From the UHGV virus genome UHGV-0205694: 53,275 nt of DNA, one strand, 5' to 3'. The translations under genes were made by a program, and so were the position numbers. The notes beneath the pieces are model-generated. The model worked only from the letters and a program-made list of their open reading frames with translations. It was not told the DNA's origin and ran no database searches. This document shows positions 1,965 through 53,092 of the stretch, one piece after another. This DNA comes from a virus. How positions within the stretch are numbered: the first letter of the stretch is position 1; every line of letters starts with the position of its first letter.

Positions 1965-2704
1965 AATCTATCGCAGAAAGCATGCATAACTTCGATCGGA
2001 AGAACTTCCAACGTATCGCCGCCGGTATGCCTGAAATGCAGGATGCGCAGAGCTTTGCACATCAGGCGACAAAGACGGCTGAGGTATTCAACGAACTGTT
2101 TCGCCAGTTGCTCGCGGTATTCCCGGCGCTTGCCAACAAATCAGCGGAAGACCTCAACGAGATGCGTCGCCAGTGGCTCCTGGCGTTCAAGGAGAACGGC
2201 ATCACCACGGTAGAGCAGATTAACGCCGGCATGCGGGTTGCTCGCAAGCAGGAAAAACCCTTCATGCCATCTCCTGGTCAGTTTGTTGCCTGGTGCCGTT
2301 CTGAGGAGGCGGTGACGGTAGGCCTTCCAGATGCGAGTGAGCTGGTTGATATGGTTTACCAGTATTGCCGGACCCGCGGTCAGTATCCTGACGCTGAGTC
2401 GTACCCATGGCCTGAACACAAAATCGAACCGATAACGCTGAAACACAAAGCCTGCTACTGGATGGTTACCGGTCTGTATACGGATATGCGCGCAAATGGT
2501 CTCAGCGATTCAGAACTGCGTCGTAAAGCATCAGATGAGCTGTTGCGTATGGTTCGTCGCTTGAACGCCGGAGAAACGATTCCAGAGCCGGTTAAGCAGA
2601 TCCCAAAACTCGGCGGACGTCCGCTGAGTAACGAGCAGGGCTTAAACAAAATCGCTGAAATCCGCGCGAAGTTTGGCCTTGGGAGAGGGCGCAACCATGG
2701 CTAA
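1961..2704 (+). CDS. P: replication protein P (DnaB helicase loader)
   Basis: Strong similarity along its length to lambda P as recalled (MK.IA..M.NFDR...RIA..MPE..., ...NAGMRVAR.Q..PF.PSPGQFVAWCR.E..., ...IPEPVKQ.P..GGRPL); ATGA overlap with O. Confidence 0.85.
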   Translation: MKSIAESMHNFDRKNFQRIAAGMPEMQDAQSFAHQATKTAEVFNELFRQLLAVFPALANKSAEDLNEMRRQWLLAFKENGITTVEQINAGMRVARKQEKPFMPSPGQFVAWCRSEEAVTVGLPDASELVDMVYQYCRTRGQYPDAESYPWPEHKIEPITLKHKACYWMVTGLYTDMRANGLSDSELRRKASDELLRMVRRLNAGETIPEPVKQIPKLGGRPLSNEQGLNKIAEIRAKFGLGRGRNHG

Positions 2705-2963
2705 CAAATCACGTGAACAAAAACAGGCCTGCGTCCAGGCGATTATCGAACTTACTCGCGAGAAAGGGCGCCTGACAGTGAAAGAAGCCTGCGCAGAACT
2801 ACGCATGTGCAGGGATACCGCAGGTCGATATTTCCAGGCTGCAGTCAGAACCGGAAAGGTCATCCGCTACGGGCGGCTTGGATTGTTCCGGGACCAGCGG
2901 GCGACCATAGATTTTGACCTTCAGAGATTCAGTCGTCGGAAGGATACGGGAGCATGCAAATGA
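2697..2963 (+). CDS. small hypothetical protein at the ren position (88 aa)
   Basis: ATG overlaps the P stop; basic small protein; position only. Confidence 0.4.
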   Translation: MANKSREQKQACVQAIIELTREKGRLTVKEACAELRMCRDTAGRYFQAAVRTGKVIRYGRLGLFRDQRATIDFDLQRFSRRKDTGACK

Positions 2964-3352
2964 CAGAGCAAACCATTCTCGACATGTGCTGTGGCTCTCG
3001 GATGTTCTGGTTCGATAAACAGGACGAGCGCGCTGTATTCAGTGATATTCGCGCTGAACAGCACAAACTTTGTGACGGTCGCAGCCTGGTTATCAGCCCG
3101 GACATTATTGCCTACTTCCGCGCGCTGCCGTTCGCTGACACCTCTTTCCCGATTGTCGTGTTTGACCCGCCGCATCTTGAACGAGTGGGCGAAAACGCCT
3201 GGATGGGTAAGAAATACGGTCGCCTGAACAAAGATATCTGGCGCGATGACCTGCGCACAGGTTTTGAAGAGGCTTTTCGCGTGCTGCGGCCACACGACGT
3301 AATCATCTTCAAATGGAACGAAACCCAGATAACCGCGCAGCGTCTGGGGTAG
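2954..3352 (+). CDS. small methyltransferase-like protein (132 aa; DPPH motif)
   Basis: DMCCGSRMF (SAM-loop-like) and VVFDPPHL (DPPY/H-like catalytic motif) followed by FRVLRPHDVIIFKW; too short for a full MTase. Confidence 0.35.
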   Translation: MQMTEQTILDMCCGSRMFWFDKQDERAVFSDIRAEQHKLCDGRSLVISPDIIAYFRALPFADTSFPIVVFDPPHLERVGENAWMGKKYGRLNKDIWRDDLRTGFEEAFRVLRPHDVIIFKWNETQITAQRLG

Positions 3353-3445
3353 ATAATTTGGCATCTGAAAAAATCGCAGTTAAGAAAAAAATCTGACGAG
3401 CTTCTCAATCGTTGGAAAGTGGCTGTAAACATTAATAGGGGCTAG

Positions 3446-3508
3446 TTGACAAAATCAATGTTTTGCACCATTATCCCGGTTGACAAAGTTTGATTTTTGC
3501 ACTGAAAG
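3446..3508 (+). promoter_or_regulatory. sigma70-like promoter with tandem 23-bp repeats (TTGACAAA-N7-TTTTGCAC x2)
   Basis: TTGACA 3446-3451, 17-nt spacer, CATTAT 3469-3474. A second copy has TTGACA 3480-3485 with a poor -10. The direct repeat may be an operator. Confidence 0.45.
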
Positions 3509-3520
3509 GAAAGTGACCCG

Positions 3521-4114
3521 ATGCAAAATTACCCATTACCTTGGACGTTTCATCCGCAGTTAACCGAAGAACGCTTATCTATTATTGCGGAGGCTCTCCT
3601 TAAAGTGCAGGAAGACACGCATGAGCTTTTGTCTTCTTCGCTTGATGATAATTATACCCGAGCAACATGTACTTTTGGGCGCCAGAAAAATCGAATCGTC
3701 AAATTGTGCATGTCAAATAAATACGACTGGTTGGGGCTTTCTAATCCGAATAATGATTACACAATCACTATTGGCGGTATCCCAATCCGTTCATTTAGCG
3801 ATGATCCAACTAATCCGAAAAAGGCTAACTTCTTTCGAAAGAATAGTGTTGATCAGCTATTCGCATCGGAAGATACAATCCCTACGATTTGGCGCTTCGT
3901 TGTAGAGAAACCTGAGTTCGAAGGTGAAGGTGGGCGAGTGCATTTTGCGGGTTATAATGCGCTGGAAGAAATGCTCTCTTTATGGACGTATGGCGAAGAA
4001 CGGGTAACTGTGCTGCATTCTACAGATGATACCCCGCCAGCACCTGTCAAGATTGAGCTGGATGATATCAGCGCTTCTATTCCTGAAAAGGAAAAGAAAA
4101 GCGATAACGGATAA
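3521..4114 (+). CDS. hypothetical protein (197 aa), candidate toxin/effector partner of the HTH-M78 protein
   Basis: Own promoter upstream; 13-nt gap to the next gene; lower GC than flanks; no recognisable motif. Confidence 0.55.
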   Translation: MQNYPLPWTFHPQLTEERLSIIAEALLKVQEDTHELLSSSLDDNYTRATCTFGRQKNRIVKLCMSNKYDWLGLSNPNNDYTITIGGIPIRSFSDDPTNPKKANFFRKNSVDQLFASEDTIPTIWRFVVEKPEFEGEGGRVHFAGYNALEEMLSLWTYGEERVTVLHSTDDTPPAPVKIELDDISASIPEKEKKSDNG

Positions 4115-4127
4115 TAGTAGGTGAAAA

Positions 4128-5240
4128 GTGTTTAACGGTTCTAATTTGCGATTGGCTCGTCTGTATCATGAGTTATCACTGGAGCAAGTAGCTGAGCGGG
4201 TCGATAAGACCCGCCAGTACATTCAGCGGCTGGAATCCGGTTCGGCTGTGCCTACTCCTGAGCTTGCGAATAAATTAGCTGCCGTATTGCTGGTCACGCC
4301 TGAATTTTTCTCAGTGCAAGAGCAGTCTCCAGTGAATGAAGAGCTCGTTCACTTCCGCAAGCGTAGTTCAACACGCATGGCTACTAAGTTGGCGACGCTT
4401 GCTAAAGCTGAATTATATCGCCGCCTCATTGAAGTTTTTGAAGAGTACTTGAATTTACCGCCAGTAAGATTTCCTGAACTGAGAGTAAATACTCAAGAGG
4501 ACATAGAAAGAGCCGCTGAGAAATGCCGGACTGATTGGGGATTAGGTTTTGGGCCGATTGACAATATGACTCGACTTGCTGAAAAGCTGGGAGCATTTGT
4601 TACTTCTTTCGATTCTGTCTCTGATGATGTGGATGCGCTTTCTGTTCCTTTAAGCCGGCCATTCATTGTAAGAAATACGGCTAAAAAATCGCCTTGCCGT
4701 CAGCGTTTTGATATTGCTCACGAAGTAGCACATTTGATTTTGCATGAAGGTATTTCAACGGGAGATCGGGTAACTGAATCTCAAGCTAACCGTTTTGCAT
4801 CGGCATTGCTTTTACCCCGTTCGGCGATGGCAAAATATTTCCCTCGCCCAATTGGTGGTCGTATCGACTGGCAAGGGCTGAGTCAATTTAAATTGACATG
4901 GAAAGTAAGTAAGGCAGCAACAATTTATAGGGCGCATCAGCTTTCTCTCTTAACCGATGCCCAATATAAAACGGCATTCTTCGGTTTAAAGCGCAAGGGG
5001 GAAGCAATTGATGAAAAAGAGGATTATTTGATTCCTAATGAAAAGCCTGAGCTTTTTCATAAGGCAATGAAGTTTCTCTTAACGGATCTGTCTGTTGATG
5101 TTGAGTACTTAGCCAAGCGTTTGTGTATTACCCCGACGATGTTAGCAGAGTTAGCAAACGATAATACGTTAGATTTTGCCCGAGAAGTCGCTAACGAAAA
5201 TGTCGTTTCTCTGTCTGCATACCGAATGAATACCGTTTAA
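4128..5240 (+). CDS. XRE-family HTH fused to an ImmA/IrrE-type (M78) zinc metallopeptidase, 370 aa
   Basis: N-terminal HTH (LSLEQVAERVDKTRQYIQRLESG); HEXXH motif HEVAHLILHE in the C-terminal half, the COG2856-like arrangement. Confidence 0.75.
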   Translation: MFNGSNLRLARLYHELSLEQVAERVDKTRQYIQRLESGSAVPTPELANKLAAVLLVTPEFFSVQEQSPVNEELVHFRKRSSTRMATKLATLAKAELYRRLIEVFEEYLNLPPVRFPELRVNTQEDIERAAEKCRTDWGLGFGPIDNMTRLAEKLGAFVTSFDSVSDDVDALSVPLSRPFIVRNTAKKSPCRQRFDIAHEVAHLILHEGISTGDRVTESQANRFASALLLPRSAMAKYFPRPIGGRIDWQGLSQFKLTWKVSKAATIYRAHQLSLLTDAQYKTAFFGLKRKGEAIDEKEDYLIPNEKPELFHKAMKFLLTDLSVDVEYLAKRLCITPTMLAELANDNTLDFAREVANENVVSLSAYRMNTV

Positions 5241-5253
5241 TCTAGTTGTAAAG

Positions 5254-5279
5254 AGATCCCGCTTTGGCGGGATTTTTTA
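5254..5279 (+). terminator. rho-independent terminator
   Basis: ATCCCGC-TTTG-GCGGGAT stem-loop followed by TTTTTAT. Confidence 0.6.
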
Positions 5280-5339
5280 TGTGTAATATTAAATAACTAA
5301 TTGATTTATATAAATTTATTTTGAAAAAGGAAAGTTTTA

Positions 5340-5606
5340 ATGAAGATTCGCCTCACAGTGACAGTTAGCGCTTATGGCCAGGGTGATAACCCTTTGTTTA
5401 CAAGATTGATATTTGTAGATAAAGACCTTACTAATGCGCCTCCGATAGAGGTTTTTGTGGAAGGATTACAAATGGAGTTGCTTCCTGATTTTCAAAAAGA
5501 AAACAGTAGTATTGCAAGCATTGCGGTTGAATCAATTGTGATTATTGACAGCGGAAAAAGCGTCGCGCATACAGTCTGGCCGAAGCCTGATAAAAAAGGT
5601 GCATAA
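5340..5606 (+). CDS. hypothetical low-GC moron protein (88 aa)
   Basis: AT-rich ORF with an AT-rich leader. Confidence 0.35.
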   Translation: MKIRLTVTVSAYGQGDNPLFTRLIFVDKDLTNAPPIEVFVEGLQMELLPDFQKENSSIASIAVESIVIIDSGKSVAHTVWPKPDKKGA

Positions 5607-6216
5607 ATCTGCATTCATATGTACAAAATTTAGGATGGTAATTTTTCAAGAGCAGACCAGATGGGTGGGTCTTCCGGTGGTCTGCACATTTGCACAAAAA
5701 AGCGGGGTTTCTGCGTGCGTGCGGGCGAGGCGGGGAGTTGGTGATACCTAAATCCCCTACAGTGACAAAAACCATAAAACGCAAACACGCTATTTGTTAT
5801 CAACAAACCGCAGGTTTGTATTTATGCGAATGATAACCAGGAAGAAACCCGCCTTTACTGGGCTGTATCAGACAGGCGTACTGACTCGCATAGCTGCTGT
5901 AAAAAGTCCTGATGGTGGCGGCTTGCGATTGTTCAGTTTGTGGGGGAGGCAAGGATATAGCTGTGTTTGTGAAGGCTGCTCGCGGAGGAATCCGCGAGTG
6001 GTCTGGTCTCGACTACCTTGCTAACTTCTGCGCGAGCTGCGGAATCAGCCTCTGGGAGATTCACAACAAGGTCACAGAAAAACCGCCGCAGTGATATATA
6101 ATCCCCTCCACACAAGAGTGGGCTTGTGTCGAAGTGGAGCCTCTCCCTCCGGCTTTACATGTAAAATGCGCATTAGTGAACTTTGGACGCAAGGGAAACA
6201 ACAGTTGGTATAGTAT

Positions 6217-6537
6217 ATGAATAAAACATTACTTCTGGTTTGCGCTGTTCTTATATCAAACTTGGCACTTGCTGTAGAAAATAAAGAAGAAATAGTGCCT
6301 GTGCGTATAAGTTGCCCTTTCCCTTATTATCCAGCTTCTGCTATGGCTAATAAGATTAGCGGCACTGTAACATACTCTGCCGAAGTAAATGAAAAAGGAG
6401 AAGTTACTTCTGTTGATACAACTGGCACTGAGATCTTTTTTAGAGAAACTAGATCAGCAATCCGGAAATGCAAGTTTGAGCCAGGAAGACCGGGCATTGC
6501 CCGTGGAACCATAAGATTTAGGCCGTATCAACCGTAA
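6217..6537 (+). CDS. secreted stand-alone TonB C-terminal-domain protein (106 aa)
   Basis: Signal peptide MNKTLLLVCAVLISNLALA. The YPASAMANKISGTVTYSAEV...FEPGRPG region parallels the TonB C-terminal domain (YPARAQALRIEGQVKVKFDV...YEPGKPG). Low GC. Confidence 0.6.
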   Translation: MNKTLLLVCAVLISNLALAVENKEEIVPVRISCPFPYYPASAMANKISGTVTYSAEVNEKGEVTSVDTTGTEIFFRETRSAIRKCKFEPGRPGIARGTIRFRPYQP

Positions 6538-7043
6538 GAGCTCCTAACTTTTTGGGGAAGTTACCTCTGGAACTATGCTTCGCAAGAAGATTTAGATGCA
6601 CATGACATGTTTTATCTATTTCCTGCATAGATTATCTGGTTTTTCTTGCATATGTATGGCGATAAACCTTGCTATTGTATTGGCATTTGGGCTTTACCTA
6701 CAGGCGCGCTCAAGCAAAACATCATGTACCCGCTTCAGTGGGGCTTTTCGCATATGCTCATTTTGCATTTATCCCCAAGGCGAGCGATTATTACCTCGTC
6801 AGCCTGAACACCTGATACCTGTTATCCGGCTCCAAGTGGGGGCACATGGCGCACAAAACCTTAAAGCAATTCCTGTCACCGATGGCGAAAGTCACCGGAT
6901 ATTTTCTGCATTCACCATTTGGCCTCTGCGGAGGTGAAGCGTGAACATTCCTCAAGAAGGCATCAAACTCCATCGCGGTAACTTTTCGGCTATTGATGAA
7001 TACCTACAGCCATATCTGGCGAATGGCGATACCTACTGACTAA

Positions 7044-7226
7044 TACTCAAGCCGCGGCGTGAAATATGCAAAGGATAAGCAGGTCGCGCGCTGTGGCAAT
7101 GCCGTCCCGCCGCCGTTTGCTGAGGCGTTGGTGAGGGCTAATTTACCTGAATTATGTCAAAAGAAAGACCCGCCACCTGATATATATTATAAAGCTGAGA
7201 ATGCAACTGTGTTTGAAATTTGTTGA
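7044..7226 (+). pseudogene. C-terminal remnant of a C5-cytosine DNA methyltransferase
   Basis: Translates to ...KYAKDKQVARCGNAVPPPFAEALVRANLPEL... (motif X, GNAV-PP) with no upstream remainder or start codon. Confidence 0.45.
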
Positions 7227-7433
7227 ATGAAATTATTGAAGTGAATTTATGTGGCGCGCTTATCATTATATAGCTTTAGGTTAAATTATTTGGAAAACTC
7301 TCAATTTGAAAATAGTTAAATCTTTTCTCCATTAAAGCTGCTATTGTCTCTTATGAAAGGGACCCATCAGGTACCAGAGCCTTCTGGTACTTGATTTTTA
7401 AGTCTATCGCTTAGGGAAGATTGAGGGTTTGCC

Positions 7434-7727
7434 ATGGCTAATGATTCACGAGGAAATGAAGTGATCTTCAATCGTGCATATCTAAACTTATGCTTTAAAA
7501 ACAAAAAATTAAGCCCGTTGGTTATAGTGGGGAAAATTAAAGAACACAATATTGTTGAATGTTTTTCTTTTGGTCTTAAGGGTACGATAGATATTGAGTC
7601 AAGATGTCTTTTTTTGCGTTATAAATATCCGTGGCCAGATTTTGAAATTGAACTGGTTAGAAAAAAAGGAGGTGATTATGAGTTCATGCTCTTTCATAAT
7701 TATTTTCTTAAGGGTATTGGCAATTAA
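7434..7727 (+). CDS. hypothetical AT-rich ORF (97 aa)
   Basis: Only an ORF inside a 1.5-kb AT-rich stretch. Confidence 0.2.
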   Translation: MANDSRGNEVIFNRAYLNLCFKNKKLSPLVIVGKIKEHNIVECFSFGLKGTIDIESRCLFLRYKYPWPDFEIELVRKKGGDYEFMLFHNYFLKGIGN

Positions 7728-8017
7728 GACATTTATAATGCTTTTTTAATAAAAATGGATTTCCCTAGACTATATGACTTAGGTGTCTTTTTTCTTGAAC
7801 CTGTCTATAAATAACATTCAAAGAGTATGGCGTACTTTCCGACGCTTCTATCAAATAATTGTAGTGTCGCTAAACACTTATATTTGGCCTCCATGTAATT
7901 AAAAAATGTACTTCTAAATGACTCTTTTGAACTCACATGAGTTGGTTGAATTTTGTTCATCGCGACCTATGCTCCTGTCCATATATAAAGCTATTGTCTA
8001 AAAAAAACCATAAAATC

Positions 8018-8045
8018 AACCCGCTACGGCGGGTTTTCTTTTCCC
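8018..8045 (+). terminator. rho-independent terminator
   Basis: AACCCGC-TACG-GCGGGTT stem followed by TTCTTTT. Confidence 0.45.
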
Positions 8046-8106
8046 ATTCCTGACAAAAATTAACGTTTTGTGCTCTTAAGATATTGAACATTCAGTAAGT
8101 TAGGTG

Positions 8107-51211: not shown

Positions 51212-51589
51212 TTAAGCGGGTAAGTAGAGATACGATTGTGGCGGTTTAATGTTTCCGCCTAAGTCAGAGATGGGGAGAGGCTCCTGATAGCGTTCGACTT
51301 CACCGATCTTTATAGCGTATGCCTTGTCTCTGCCCGAGTAGTAACTATCAAAAAACTGTTTTGATATACCAGCATATTTTTTCGTTTCATTCCATAAAGA
51401 CTCTGGCTCTCCGGAAAGGATAGTTTCTATTTGGAACTGACCAACGACTTTACCAAGAGGCATTGTGGCATAGATTATAACAATGCTGATCTCTTGATTT
51501 TTAAAAATACCTTTTCGAAACTCAAATCGTTTAGTCCCATCCAAAATTTTTTCTGCAAATTCTGGCTTAATGGATAATAAAACTTTCAT
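51212..51589 (-). CDS. ASCH-domain (PUA-like) protein, 125 aa
   Basis: MKVLLSIKPEFAEKILDGTKRFEFRKG... is the canonical ASCH N-terminal strand motif; overlaps the upstream gene by 23 nt. Confidence 0.65.
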   Translation of the reverse strand: MKVLLSIKPEFAEKILDGTKRFEFRKGIFKNQEISIVIIYATMPLGKVVGQFQIETILSGEPESLWNETKKYAGISKQFFDSYYSGRDKAYAIKIGEVERYQEPLPISDLGGNIKPPQSYLYLPA

Positions 51590-52628
51590 TTATACGACCT
51601 AACTCTATGATCTTAAAAAACTGCTCATCAGTAAGTTGAAAATGACTCCATCTAAATCCACGAGCACCATTTAAACCGACCTGATCAATAAGACTAGCAC
51701 GATTTGGACGTTTAGGTAAAGATATGTTATAGGAAAAGCGTATAACATAGGGGTAACGCTTATCTTTGTAAAAACCTCTGAGCTCCTCTTCAGAGAAGAC
51801 GCTAAAGCGAAGGCAGTATTCGACAAAGCTATCTTCATTTCGAAAATCATCAATGGTTTTTACTGACTCGACGACACAAATCGTGGATGCGACTGCACGG
51901 TAGTGCGCTGGGCCTTGCCCATCTCCTGTGCGATAGATAACAATAATATCGCCCCTGTTCATGCGGGTAACTGTTGGCATCCCACAAATGTATATTTTAT
52001 GTATGCTGTTTGCGTGAGAGATGTCTTTAACAATATCTGGTGATTCGTTAATAAGCTTGGAGTCAGGGAATAGTCTTGTATGATAATCTGGATAAATAGC
52101 AAGAAGGTATTTATTTACTTTCGCTGTTAATATTCTGGGATAATCCAACAGGATATCACCGTAGACATCATGCAAGGAGCGAGCATATACATACTCTTTT
52201 CCATTATGCGTTTCTTTTTCACCATGCACATAAAAACCATAGGTTTGGAAGAGTTTTATTAGGTGGGCATGTTTATCAAACACTGTGACGTATATGTCAT
52301 CAGAACCAGATGAAAAAGCATGGTCAAAGGCTTTTTTTAAGAAACGCTGCCCCCTAAGTGTTCCCTTTGACTCGAACTTAAATGTACCTATCTTTAAATG
52401 ACGGCCGTGAGGCAATTTGGGGCTTATGTCGTCGGCATCATCATTTTCCTTAAGGTACATGAATCCTTCAATTTTGTGATTTTCATCGTAGAGAATGTAG
52501 GCGGATTCATTAGCGTCGGCTTTTTTCTTGAGCCAATCAGGGAACTCTTTGTAATCACTCTTCAATGAATCAAAAAATGGGTCGTTATGATCAAATTGAG
52601 AGAAACTTTCATACCTTAAGCTATCCAT
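51567..52628 (-). CDS. GNAT-like acetyltransferase N-terminal domain fused to a PUA-like C-terminal domain (353 aa)
   Basis: LKIGTFKFESKGTLRGQRF...FDKHAHLIKLFQTYGFYVHGE fits GNAT motifs A/B; C-terminal RMNRGDIIVIYR... reads as a beta-rich PUA-like fold. Low GC. Confidence 0.5.
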   Translation of the reverse strand: MDSLRYESFSQFDHNDPFFDSLKSDYKEFPDWLKKKADANESAYILYDENHKIEGFMYLKENDDADDISPKLPHGRHLKIGTFKFESKGTLRGQRFLKKAFDHAFSSGSDDIYVTVFDKHAHLIKLFQTYGFYVHGEKETHNGKEYVYARSLHDVYGDILLDYPRILTAKVNKYLLAIYPDYHTRLFPDSKLINESPDIVKDISHANSIHKIYICGMPTVTRMNRGDIIVIYRTGDGQGPAHYRAVASTICVVESVKTIDDFRNEDSFVEYCLRFSVFSEEELRGFYKDKRYPYVIRFSYNISLPKRPNRASLIDQVGLNGARGFRWSHFQLTDEQFFKIIELGRINESFIIH

Positions 52629-52696: not shown

Positions 52697-53092
52697 TCAT
52701 TCACCGTCACCCTTAATCCTTCGCCCCATGTACTTGGCATACAGCTCATCAAGTTCCTTCAGCCGCAGAGATACGATCCGCAACATGTTTTGCTGCTCTT
52801 CTTCATTCGGTAGCTGGTTATAGAGCTCCAACAGTCTCCGCTCATCTGGCCTCAAGCCATCTTTAGAATCGACGTCCTGCCCCAAAACCCACTCAAGACT
52901 AACACCTAGCGCATCAGCAAGTTTTATTGCAGAGCTTTTCCCGATCGCTCCTCTAACAAACCAGTTGTTAACAGATTGCGAGCTCACACCACAGATCCTC
53001 GCTATATCAGCTTTAGATATGCGCTTCTGCTCAATGATTTCGTTAAGCCGCTTTACCTGCGGGTTATCTGCTTGGTGCGTATTTTTTCTCAT
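52697..53092 (-). CDS. cI-type prophage repressor, HTH-XRE only (131 aa), no S24 autocleavage domain
   Basis: HTH ISKADIARICGVSSQSVNNW; divergent from a Cro-like gene with operators between; no GDSM...K peptidase segment. Confidence 0.75.
   Translation of the reverse strand: MRKNTHQADNPQVKRLNEIIEQKRISKADIARICGVSSQSVNNWFVRGAIGKSSAIKLADALGVSLEWVLGQDVDSKDGLRPDERRLLELYNQLPNEEEQQNMLRIVSLRLKELDELYAKYMGRRIKGDGE

Follow-up and report, generated by a model that had tools for sequence, protein, structure and literature searches.

The stretch of DNA considered here (UHGV virus genome UHGV-0205694, 53,275 nucleotides, "the window" in what follows) is a complete lambdoid prophage in circularly permuted form, and its nin region carries two co-oriented genes, rmrT and rmrA, whose products have 197 and 370 aa. 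From the letters alone, the original prediction had taken this pair for a self-contained module arranged like RosmerTA; both open reading frames (ORFs) lie exactly where it had placed them, and the PADLOC scan that it asked for matches both genes from end to end. The first gene fits the RmrT model PDLC03929 (E 1.5e-94, model positions 1-196 of 198) and the second the RmrA model PDLC03943 (E 2.7e-205, positions 1-369 of 370), with weaker matches to 13 further RmrA models. What makes up a RosmerTA system in the sense of PADLOC or DefenseFinder is present throughout: an RmrA match, an RmrT match adjacent to it, an adjacent and co-oriented operon, and an intact HEXXH motif. By these profile matches, the gene pair at 3521-5240 is a member of the catalogued RosmerTA toxin-antitoxin (TA) and anti-phage family. 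The system is already known, because standard tools call the pair (a PADLOC scan would have named both genes), public databases contain these exact proteins and an E. coli ortholog has been characterized as a TA system. We consider it very probable that rmrT-rmrA is a type II-like RosmerTA cassette and that it forms a moron, an accessory element, among the nin genes of a lambdoid prophage of Klebsiella type.

Anatomy and boundaries of the rmrT-rmrA cassette

The two genes are separated by a gap of 13 nt and share a single promoter and a single terminator, a layout that recurs in every intact locus examined, distant family members included. Both signals had been anticipated. The promoter is of sigma-70 type, and the terminator, which a simple scan had missed, folds at -17.4 kcal/mol (z-score -4.54, with 0 of 200 shuffles equally stable) and ends in a U-run; a hairpin followed by a T-run, with differing stem sequences, lies 3' of rmrA in all six other loci examined. 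The cassette sits between the replication genes and dinI, following O, P, DUF977 and methyltransferase-like genes and preceding those for DinI, DUF1367, NinG and Q. Its GC content is lower than that of its flanks, again as predicted (0.436 vs 0.522 in the upstream early genes and 0.509 downstream of 8104), and so is the GC content at third codon positions (0.39-0.40 vs 0.54-0.63).

How far does the unit extend? When window positions 2500-6500 were compared by blastn with copies in unrelated backbones, homology began at 3331-3445, just outside the promoter, and stopped at 5278-5282, just past the terminator, bearing out the self-contained nature of the module. The start differs by copy: 3331 for L024, which lies in a P2-like prophage, 3403 for L004, and 3421-3422 for L001 and L008. 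Against sequenced Klebsiella phages with the same flanks, homology drops at ~3335 and returns at ~8103; the cassette therefore opens, on the left, a variable 4.8-kb tract of low GC content within the nin region. As judged from these alignments, the RosmerTA pair is a discrete mobile unit reaching from ~3331/3445 to 5280. An 88-aa ORF at 5340-5606 was considered as a third component and rejected: it lies past both the terminator and the shared homology, has no match in Pfam, PADLOC, PHROG or NCBIfam, and bears no relation to the 90-aa ORF located downstream of the E. coli copies. The coordinates of the cassette features are collected in Table 1.

Table 1. Features of the rmrT-rmrA cassette, in window coordinates
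Feature	Position	Strand	Details
Upstream conserved flank	3394-3445	+	~50 bp shared with L024 and with L001, L004 and L008
Sigma-70-type promoter	3446-3474	+	-35 TTGACA 3446-3451, 17-nt spacer, -10 CATTAT 3469-3474; consensus scan 10/12
Operator-like box 1	~3445/3446-3468	+	TTGACAAA-N9-TTGCAC; over -35 and spacer; direct repeat
Operator-like box 2	~3479/3480-3502	+	TTGACAAA-N9-TTGCAC; over predicted transcription start and 5' untranslated region
rmrT Shine-Dalgarno core	3507-3510	+	AGGA, read from the sequence; 10 nt before ATG
rmrT (197 aa)	3521-4114	+	ATG start; PADLOC RmrT PDLC03929, PHROG 5786
rmrA Shine-Dalgarno	4119-4124	+	AGGTGA, read from the sequence; within the 13-nt intergenic gap
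rmrA (370 aa)	4128-5240	+	GTG start; XRE helix-turn-helix fused to M78 (ImmA/IrrE) Zn-peptidase; PADLOC RmrA PDLC03943
XRE-type helix-turn-helix, RmrA residues 7-61	4146-4310	+	Pfam HTH_3, E 1.1e-13
Peptidase_M78, RmrA residues 151-269	4578-4934	+	Pfam, E 1.5e-17
HEVAH zinc motif, RmrA residues 198-202	4719-4733	+	Invariant in 8/8 orthologs
Fast-evolving RmrA C-terminal tail, residues ~311-370	5058-5237	+	Conservation collapses past ~310 in the alignment
Intrinsic terminator	5251-5278	+	GC-rich stem core 5256-5273, followed by U-tract

RmrA has the architecture that had been proposed for it, an XRE helix-turn-helix (HTH) joined to an ImmA/IrrE-type peptidase with its zinc motif intact. Among PHROG families it falls into phrog_2439 (transcriptional regulator), a sequence search of the PDB returned a weak HTH match only, and partial PADLOC matches connect it to capP (E 1.7e-18) and capH (E 7.9e-08). 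The NCBIfam model NF052239 for the spr1629 (RipB) repressor/antitoxin aligns with residues 1-344 at 160.4 bits (E 6.4e-47), under the cut-off of 335 bits, so that RmrA belongs to a related family and is not an equivalog. Conservation across seven orthologs is uneven along the chain: the HTH region (residues 1-70) is 71-94% identical and the stretch with the M78 domain (residues 120-275) 86-98%, whereas the C-terminal segment falls to 52-84%, a divergence near that of RmrT (58-87%). We flag the last ~60 residues of RmrA, which evolve at the toxin's pace, as a candidate toxin-specific neutralization or recognition module, a suggestion drawn from these seven pairs.

RmrT, by comparison, had been described as a protein without a recognizable domain, and neither Pfam nor NCBIfam holds a match to it; its PHROG family, phrog_5786 (E 2.8e-79), is one of unknown function. 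The family is sizeable: a word-indexed search returned 88 clusters and an exhaustive profile search 478 representatives at 50% identity, of which 218 reach E <= 1e-10; almost all of the 478 are standalone proteins of ~200 aa. The structure prediction that had been recommended was run with AlphaFold2 on an alignment of 51 sequences (predicted local distance difference test score, pLDDT, 80.5; predicted template modeling score, pTM, 0.73) and gave a fold of two long helices (residues 16-36 and 44-64), three strands, a long ordered loop, three strands and a tail that is disordered from ~160. Searches with this fold found no confident match in the PDB and none at E <= 0.001 in BFVD, and a sequence search of the PDB found nothing. 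Restriction endonucleases recur among the weak top fold matches, and a PD-(D/E)xK nuclease was therefore a candidate; the putative catalytic residues D79, D94 and K101 are not conserved among the 112 members of a broader alignment (median 27% identity to the RmrT of the window), which is why we assign no nuclease function. Charge is conserved in this alignment at D42 and R90 alone, with weaker conservation at E17 and R18. By analogy with its studied relatives, RmrT would be a growth-arresting toxin, one without a confident fold relative. As a separate observation, 12 stretches of a 5046-aa protein (P0262), one of them at ~3258-3295, match RmrT profile positions 4-41 (E 1.9e-23), reflecting either a repeat that resembles the RmrT N terminus or a compositional artefact.

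Relatives, distribution and decay

Phage defence by RosmerTA was validated by Millman et al. (10.1101/2022.05.11.491447) for a system of E. coli OLC-716 with a 239-aa RmrT, and also by Ernits et al. (PMC10440598); the RmrT of Gordonia phage Kita depolarizes membranes, and the Kita system protects against two BASEL phages (PMC10440598). The pair of Millman et al. resembles that of the window in its co-oriented two-gene operon, its XRE HTH-M78 antitoxin with HEXXH and its toxin without a known domain. Distant homology between the two toxins was considered and dismissed: hhalign gave a probability of 0.08 (E 0.63) between the profiles of the two toxin families and of 0.09 against the single OLC-716 sequence, and a look-alike stretch (TxRG..FG / P..KKG.F) does not reach significance.

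The closest studied relative comes from a prophage of E. coli E101. Rousset et al. 2021 (10.1101/2020.05.25.114553) described there a TA module, E101_02645/E101_02644, with toxin WP_001179380.1 and antitoxin WP_000481765.1, which makes clpP essential; transferred to K-12, it has the same effect there, except when its toxin has the T46S substitution. The RmrA ortholog of complete E. coli genomes is annotated as WP_000481765.1 (two genomes) or WP_000481764.1 and lies directly downstream of a 197-aa RmrT, WP_001179381.1 or WP_001179382.1. Since the exact antitoxin accession thus stands beside an RmrT homolog, the E101 module is the E. coli ortholog of the window pair. Its toxin is placed as an RmrT ortholog by neighboring accession numbers and by residue 46, the threonine of a conserved DDNYTR motif in both the window RmrT and the E. 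coli ortholog, and not by a direct sequence match. The E. coli pair (197-aa toxin, 62% identical; 373-aa antitoxin, 77% identical) occupies the equivalent lambdoid slot, between hok/AAA_31 and DUF968-RusA-Q, and carries the same operator boxes; it differs in host and phage backbone, and the essentiality of clpP is E101's own result.

A further link leads to Vibrio mimicus. Rousset et al. gave the E101 pair as 33% and 42% identical to Vmi480 and Vmi470 (10.1101/2020.05.25.114553), the products of two genes of the genomic island MGIVmi1 studied by Luo et al. 2015. Vmi480, of 198 aa, is lethal in E. coli and serves as the counter-selection marker of pLP11/pLP12; the 362-aa HTH and Zn-peptidase protein Vmi470 neutralizes it when co-expressed, vmi470 could not be deleted alone, and Vmi470 by itself caused no growth defect (PMC4671572). 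As in the window, the toxin gene comes first and that of the HTH-Zn-peptidase antitoxin second; the island is mobilizable and not a prophage. A search with the RmrT family profile returned no Vibrio-named proteins. One toxin family thereby joins PADLOC PDLC03929 and the clpP-dependent TA system of E101 directly, and Vmi480 through the identity statement of Rousset et al.

The Rosmer-type pair RipA/RipB (Spr1630/Spr1629) of Streptococcus pneumoniae is likewise built around an XRE-ImmA antitoxin, its toxin RipA acts on the DnaN clamp, and control by RipB needs ClpX (PMC12795458). The spr1629 model covers most of RmrA, but the RmrA score stays under the equivalog cut-off, and RmrT has no NCBIfam match. 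In Pectobacteriaceae, transposon sequencing found rmrA essential, and clpX essential only in strains that carry RosmerTA (PMC13566846).

How widely does the pair of the window itself travel? An RmrT identical to that of the window occurs in 130 blocks of the assembly collection, from Klebsiella oxytoca or Klebsiella spp., and in each of the six contexts shown the pair occupies one and the same slot of a lambdoid prophage. The 90% cluster of RmrT extends to Salmonella (at least 1000 contigs), Cronobacter, E. coli, Yersinia and Pectobacteriaceae. Among 5426 complete genomes, 86 have matches to the E. coli pair, relatives occur in 25 plasmid records, and a P2-like prophage (L024) has a pair, ~80% identical in DNA, located between its gpA and portal genes. 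This interval is one of the variable loci of P2 that were reportedly described as defence hotspots by Rousset et al. in 2022. The RmrT of the window is found in 0 of 50,697 phage records, and a megablast search of the cassette against sequenced phages gave no match. At greater distance, four RmrT proteins of 25-45% identity (from Gallionella, a Rhodospirillales metagenome-assembled genome and two metagenome contigs) are each followed by a co-oriented gene for an HTH and Peptidase_M78 protein of 367-371 aa, and one of these loci adjoins AbiEii/DUF6088 and a reverse transcriptase (RT)-trypsin gene. Since the distant members are all paired, the order of toxin and then antitoxin holds across the whole RmrT family.

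Directly upstream of the E. coli lambdoid copies lies a hok/gef (hokD) type I toxin gene (7672-7827 in L016, L019 and L022; 273-428 in L025), which places two toxin systems next to each other within one hotspot.

The pair also decays asymmetrically. Among eight species-representative loci, two carry rmrT as a pseudogene and keep rmrA at full length: in Enterobacter sp. BRE11 (L006, 8001-8588) an in-frame stop interrupts codon 20, and in Providencia alcalifaciens (L007, 8001-8569) the frame shifts near codon 72. Their RmrA proteins, 70% and 80% identical to that of the window, are orphan antitoxins. The loss of rmrT and retention of rmrA fits an upstream toxin and speaks against a reversal of the two roles.

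Control, mode of action and rival explanations

The promoter region holds two copies of a motif that we regard as probable operators. The original prediction had described tandem 23-bp repeats, and two repeated boxes are indeed there, though not strictly in tandem: they measure 23 and 24 nt, are 75% identical and start 34 bp apart. The motif TTGACAAA-N9-TTGCA occurs in the 53-kb window at exactly two sites, 3446 and 3480, with 0 expected in 100 shuffles; allowing two mismatches adds one site, which is the chance level. Upstream regions were aligned for nine loci (Yersinia, Pectobacterium, Pseudescherichia, Pantoea, two of Enterobacter, Providencia, E. coli and the window), whose RmrT proteins are 58-87% identical to that of the window. 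In this alignment the TTGACAAA...TTGCA ends of both boxes, the TTGACA element and a CAnnAT -10 are invariant, while the interiors of the boxes and the flanks vary; both boxes are also present in the P2-like prophage copy. The N-terminal HTH of RmrA, too, is nearly identical among these loci. This pattern of conservation, typical of operons repressed by the HTH of their own antitoxin, marks the boxes as candidate binding sites of the RmrA HTH, through which the operon would probably repress itself. The GTG start of rmrA is kept in every locus examined (L001-L008 and L016), with a gap of 10-13 nt to rmrT in all intact loci, and may be a means of setting the ratio of toxin to antitoxin translation. 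An inverted repeat, GCTGTGAAAATTAACAG, lies upstream of box 1 and is conserved in several copies (~7905-7925 in L001, L004 and L008; 2531-2547 in L024) and degenerate in the window, at 3423-3439; it may be an extra regulatory site or the remnant of an upstream terminator.

Taken together with the literature, these features lead us to propose the following mode of action. The sigma-70 promoter would drive a bicistronic rmrT-rmrA transcript that ends at the strong intrinsic terminator, and in a lysogen the RmrA HTH, bound at the two TTGACAAA-N9-TTGCA boxes, would hold expression low. At the protein level, the M78 body of RmrA and its variable C-terminal tail would neutralize RmrT, helped by host ClpXP if the findings on the E. 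coli ortholog carry over; toxicity, neutralization and Clp dependence are all ascribed to this pair by analogy with orthologs and the family literature, and anti-phage activity by analogy with other RosmerTA systems. A superinfecting phage, another stress or loss of the cassette might then upset the balance of RmrA and ClpXP, and RmrT, once freed, would act on its target, arrest the cell and abort the infection; we infer both the trigger and the abortive outcome. If RmrT were released in this way whenever the cassette is lost, the cassette, and with it the prophage, would be hard to lose.

A more far-reaching version can be framed around the toxin. The lack of a confident fold match in PDB or BFVD and of a conserved catalytic motif makes it possible to read RmrT as a toxin that has a new fold and no enzymatic activity and that binds, and so blocks, an essential machine of the host. 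The tail of RmrA would then be a recognition adaptor, the M78 domain would work with ClpXP in constantly processing the toxin or passing it on, and the signal of phage infection would be either a disturbance of this relay or self-cleavage of the RmrA HTH. We hold this to be unlikely, if worth stating: were it true, the RmrA/ClpXP relay would combine toxin control with phage sensing in a manner distinct from classical type II TA systems.

Several observations weigh against the reading of the pair as a RosmerTA defence cassette with an upstream toxin. Phage protection has been validated for other RmrT types, and that of OLC-716 has no detectable homology to the RmrT of the window. The place of Vmi480 in the same toxin family is second-hand, by way of the identity statement of Rousset et al., and operator binding by RmrA is proposed from the conservation of the boxes. 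In the three-gene system PD-lambda-2 of Vassallo et al., the Xre-peptidase is itself toxic (PMC9519451), so that roles are not safely assigned from architecture alone. Finally, one E. coli locus (L020, CP122620.1, 8605-9725) has rmrA split into ORFs of 245 and 118 aa beside an intact rmrT; either the toxin is tolerated there, or the fragments are functional or complement each other, or the assembly is in error.

Could the pair serve no defensive purpose at all? It would then be a pure addiction or stabilization module for a prophage, plasmid or island, and antitoxin essentiality and toxin lethality are indeed the sole phenotypes reported for this RmrT subtype; the literature holds no defence assay for the window's RmrT family, and the pair occurs on plasmids and islands besides prophages. 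Against this stand its repeated presence in defence or moron hotspots (the nin region of lambdoid elements and, in P2, the gpA-portal locus), the copy beside AbiE and the RT-trypsin gene, and the protection against phages by other members of RosmerTA whose antitoxin is of the same type. Addiction and defence are, moreover, compatible with each other, and we rate the exclusive version as improbable.

A second alternative exchanges the roles, so that the HTH-M78 protein would be toxic and the 197-aa protein its inhibitor, as for PD-lambda-2A/B, where overexpression of the Xre-peptidase PD-lambda-2B is toxic and is rescued by the upstream gene (PMC9519451). The split rmrA beside an intact rmrT in L020 is the single observation here that points the same way. 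Both pseudogene loci, L006 and L007, run opposite to what this reversal predicts, the upstream protein Vmi480 is the lethal one while Vmi470 alone is harmless to growth and its gene not deletable by itself, and the suppressor mutation of E101 lies in the upstream gene. The reversal is accordingly very improbable.

The least credible account of all starts from the second possibility offered by the original prediction, an ImmA-like induction protease: RmrA would be an anti-repressor that, after DNA damage, cleaves the CI-like repressor of the prophage and induces it, with the first gene as an accessory. HTH repressors are indeed substrates of ImmA/IrrE-type M78 peptidases (Ernits et al., PMC10440598), the 131-aa repressor (52697-53092, minus strand) is an HTH protein that, as had been pointed out, lacks an autocleavage domain (no S24 or other peptidase domain is present), and RmrA has its weaker capP-like match. 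Yet identical RmrT proteins accompany at least three immunity regions (the 131-aa CI_repr/HTH_3 repressor, a 147-aa protein without a Pfam match and a 137-aa HTH_3 protein), the E. coli ortholog is found in prophages with S24 repressors as well as in a P2-like prophage and at non-phage chromosomal sites, and the same repressor type occurs in Klebsiella phage ST974-OXA48phi18.2 (94.6%) and coliphage mEp237 (72%), whereas the sequenced phage records contain no copy of this RmrT. The box motif, too, is confined to the cassette's own promoter and does not occur in the immunity region, RmrA has its own HTH, so that any ImmR-like substrate would be built in, and we found no link between RmrA and the prophage's own immunity region. 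The resemblance to ImmA/ImmR of ICEBs1 and to IrrE/DdrO, in which an M78 peptidase (PF06114) is functionally coupled to an XRE HTH, goes only so far: there the HTH repressor is separate, whereas RmrA unites HTH and protease in one polypeptide and has a toxin for a partner. Similarly, in CapH/CapP of the cyclic oligonucleotide-based anti-phage signaling system (CBASS), HTH and protease are encoded by separate genes, and no CBASS genes lie near rmrT-rmrA.

With the RosmerTA reading preferred, two genes annotated as "hypothetical protein" and "ImmA-IrrE peptidase" can be settled as a RosmerTA cassette, and its two-box operator architecture and clean boundaries are usable for cloning and footprinting. 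What remains of interest are the fold and mechanism of RmrT and the part that the M78 protease and ClpXP play in its control, a question that predates this window.

Neighboring genes

The upstream junction touches a neighboring gene in two cases. The methyltransferase-like ORF at 2954-3352 of the window loses its homology to related phages at ~3335, its last codons lying in cassette-derived DNA, and in the P2-like copy (L024) the gpA ORF (160-2565) enters the cassette and terminates within box 1. It seems that these upstream genes lost their own 3' ends to cassette sequence when the cassette was inserted.

On the other side, positions 5280-8103 have a GC content of 0.41 (locally 0.32), are variable and are missing from related sequenced phages. 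Besides the 88-aa ORF already mentioned, they contain ORFs for a 106-aa TonB_C-like protein (6217-6537) and a 97-aa protein (7434-7727), all probably further accessory genes. Scanning the window for Rfam families and tRNAs gave no matches.

Elsewhere in the early region, a 178-aa protein (158-694), called "CII" in related phages, has a YdaT_toxin domain and is preceded by a YdaS/Cro-like gene; this region is of cro/ydaT type and not of the lambda type with cII. On the minus strand, the gene for the 131-aa CI-like repressor is followed by a 353-aa ORF without a Pfam match (51567-52628) and then by a 125-aa ORF with an ASCH domain (51212-51589), which lie at the position of rexAB in lambda and may form a second accessory or defence locus.

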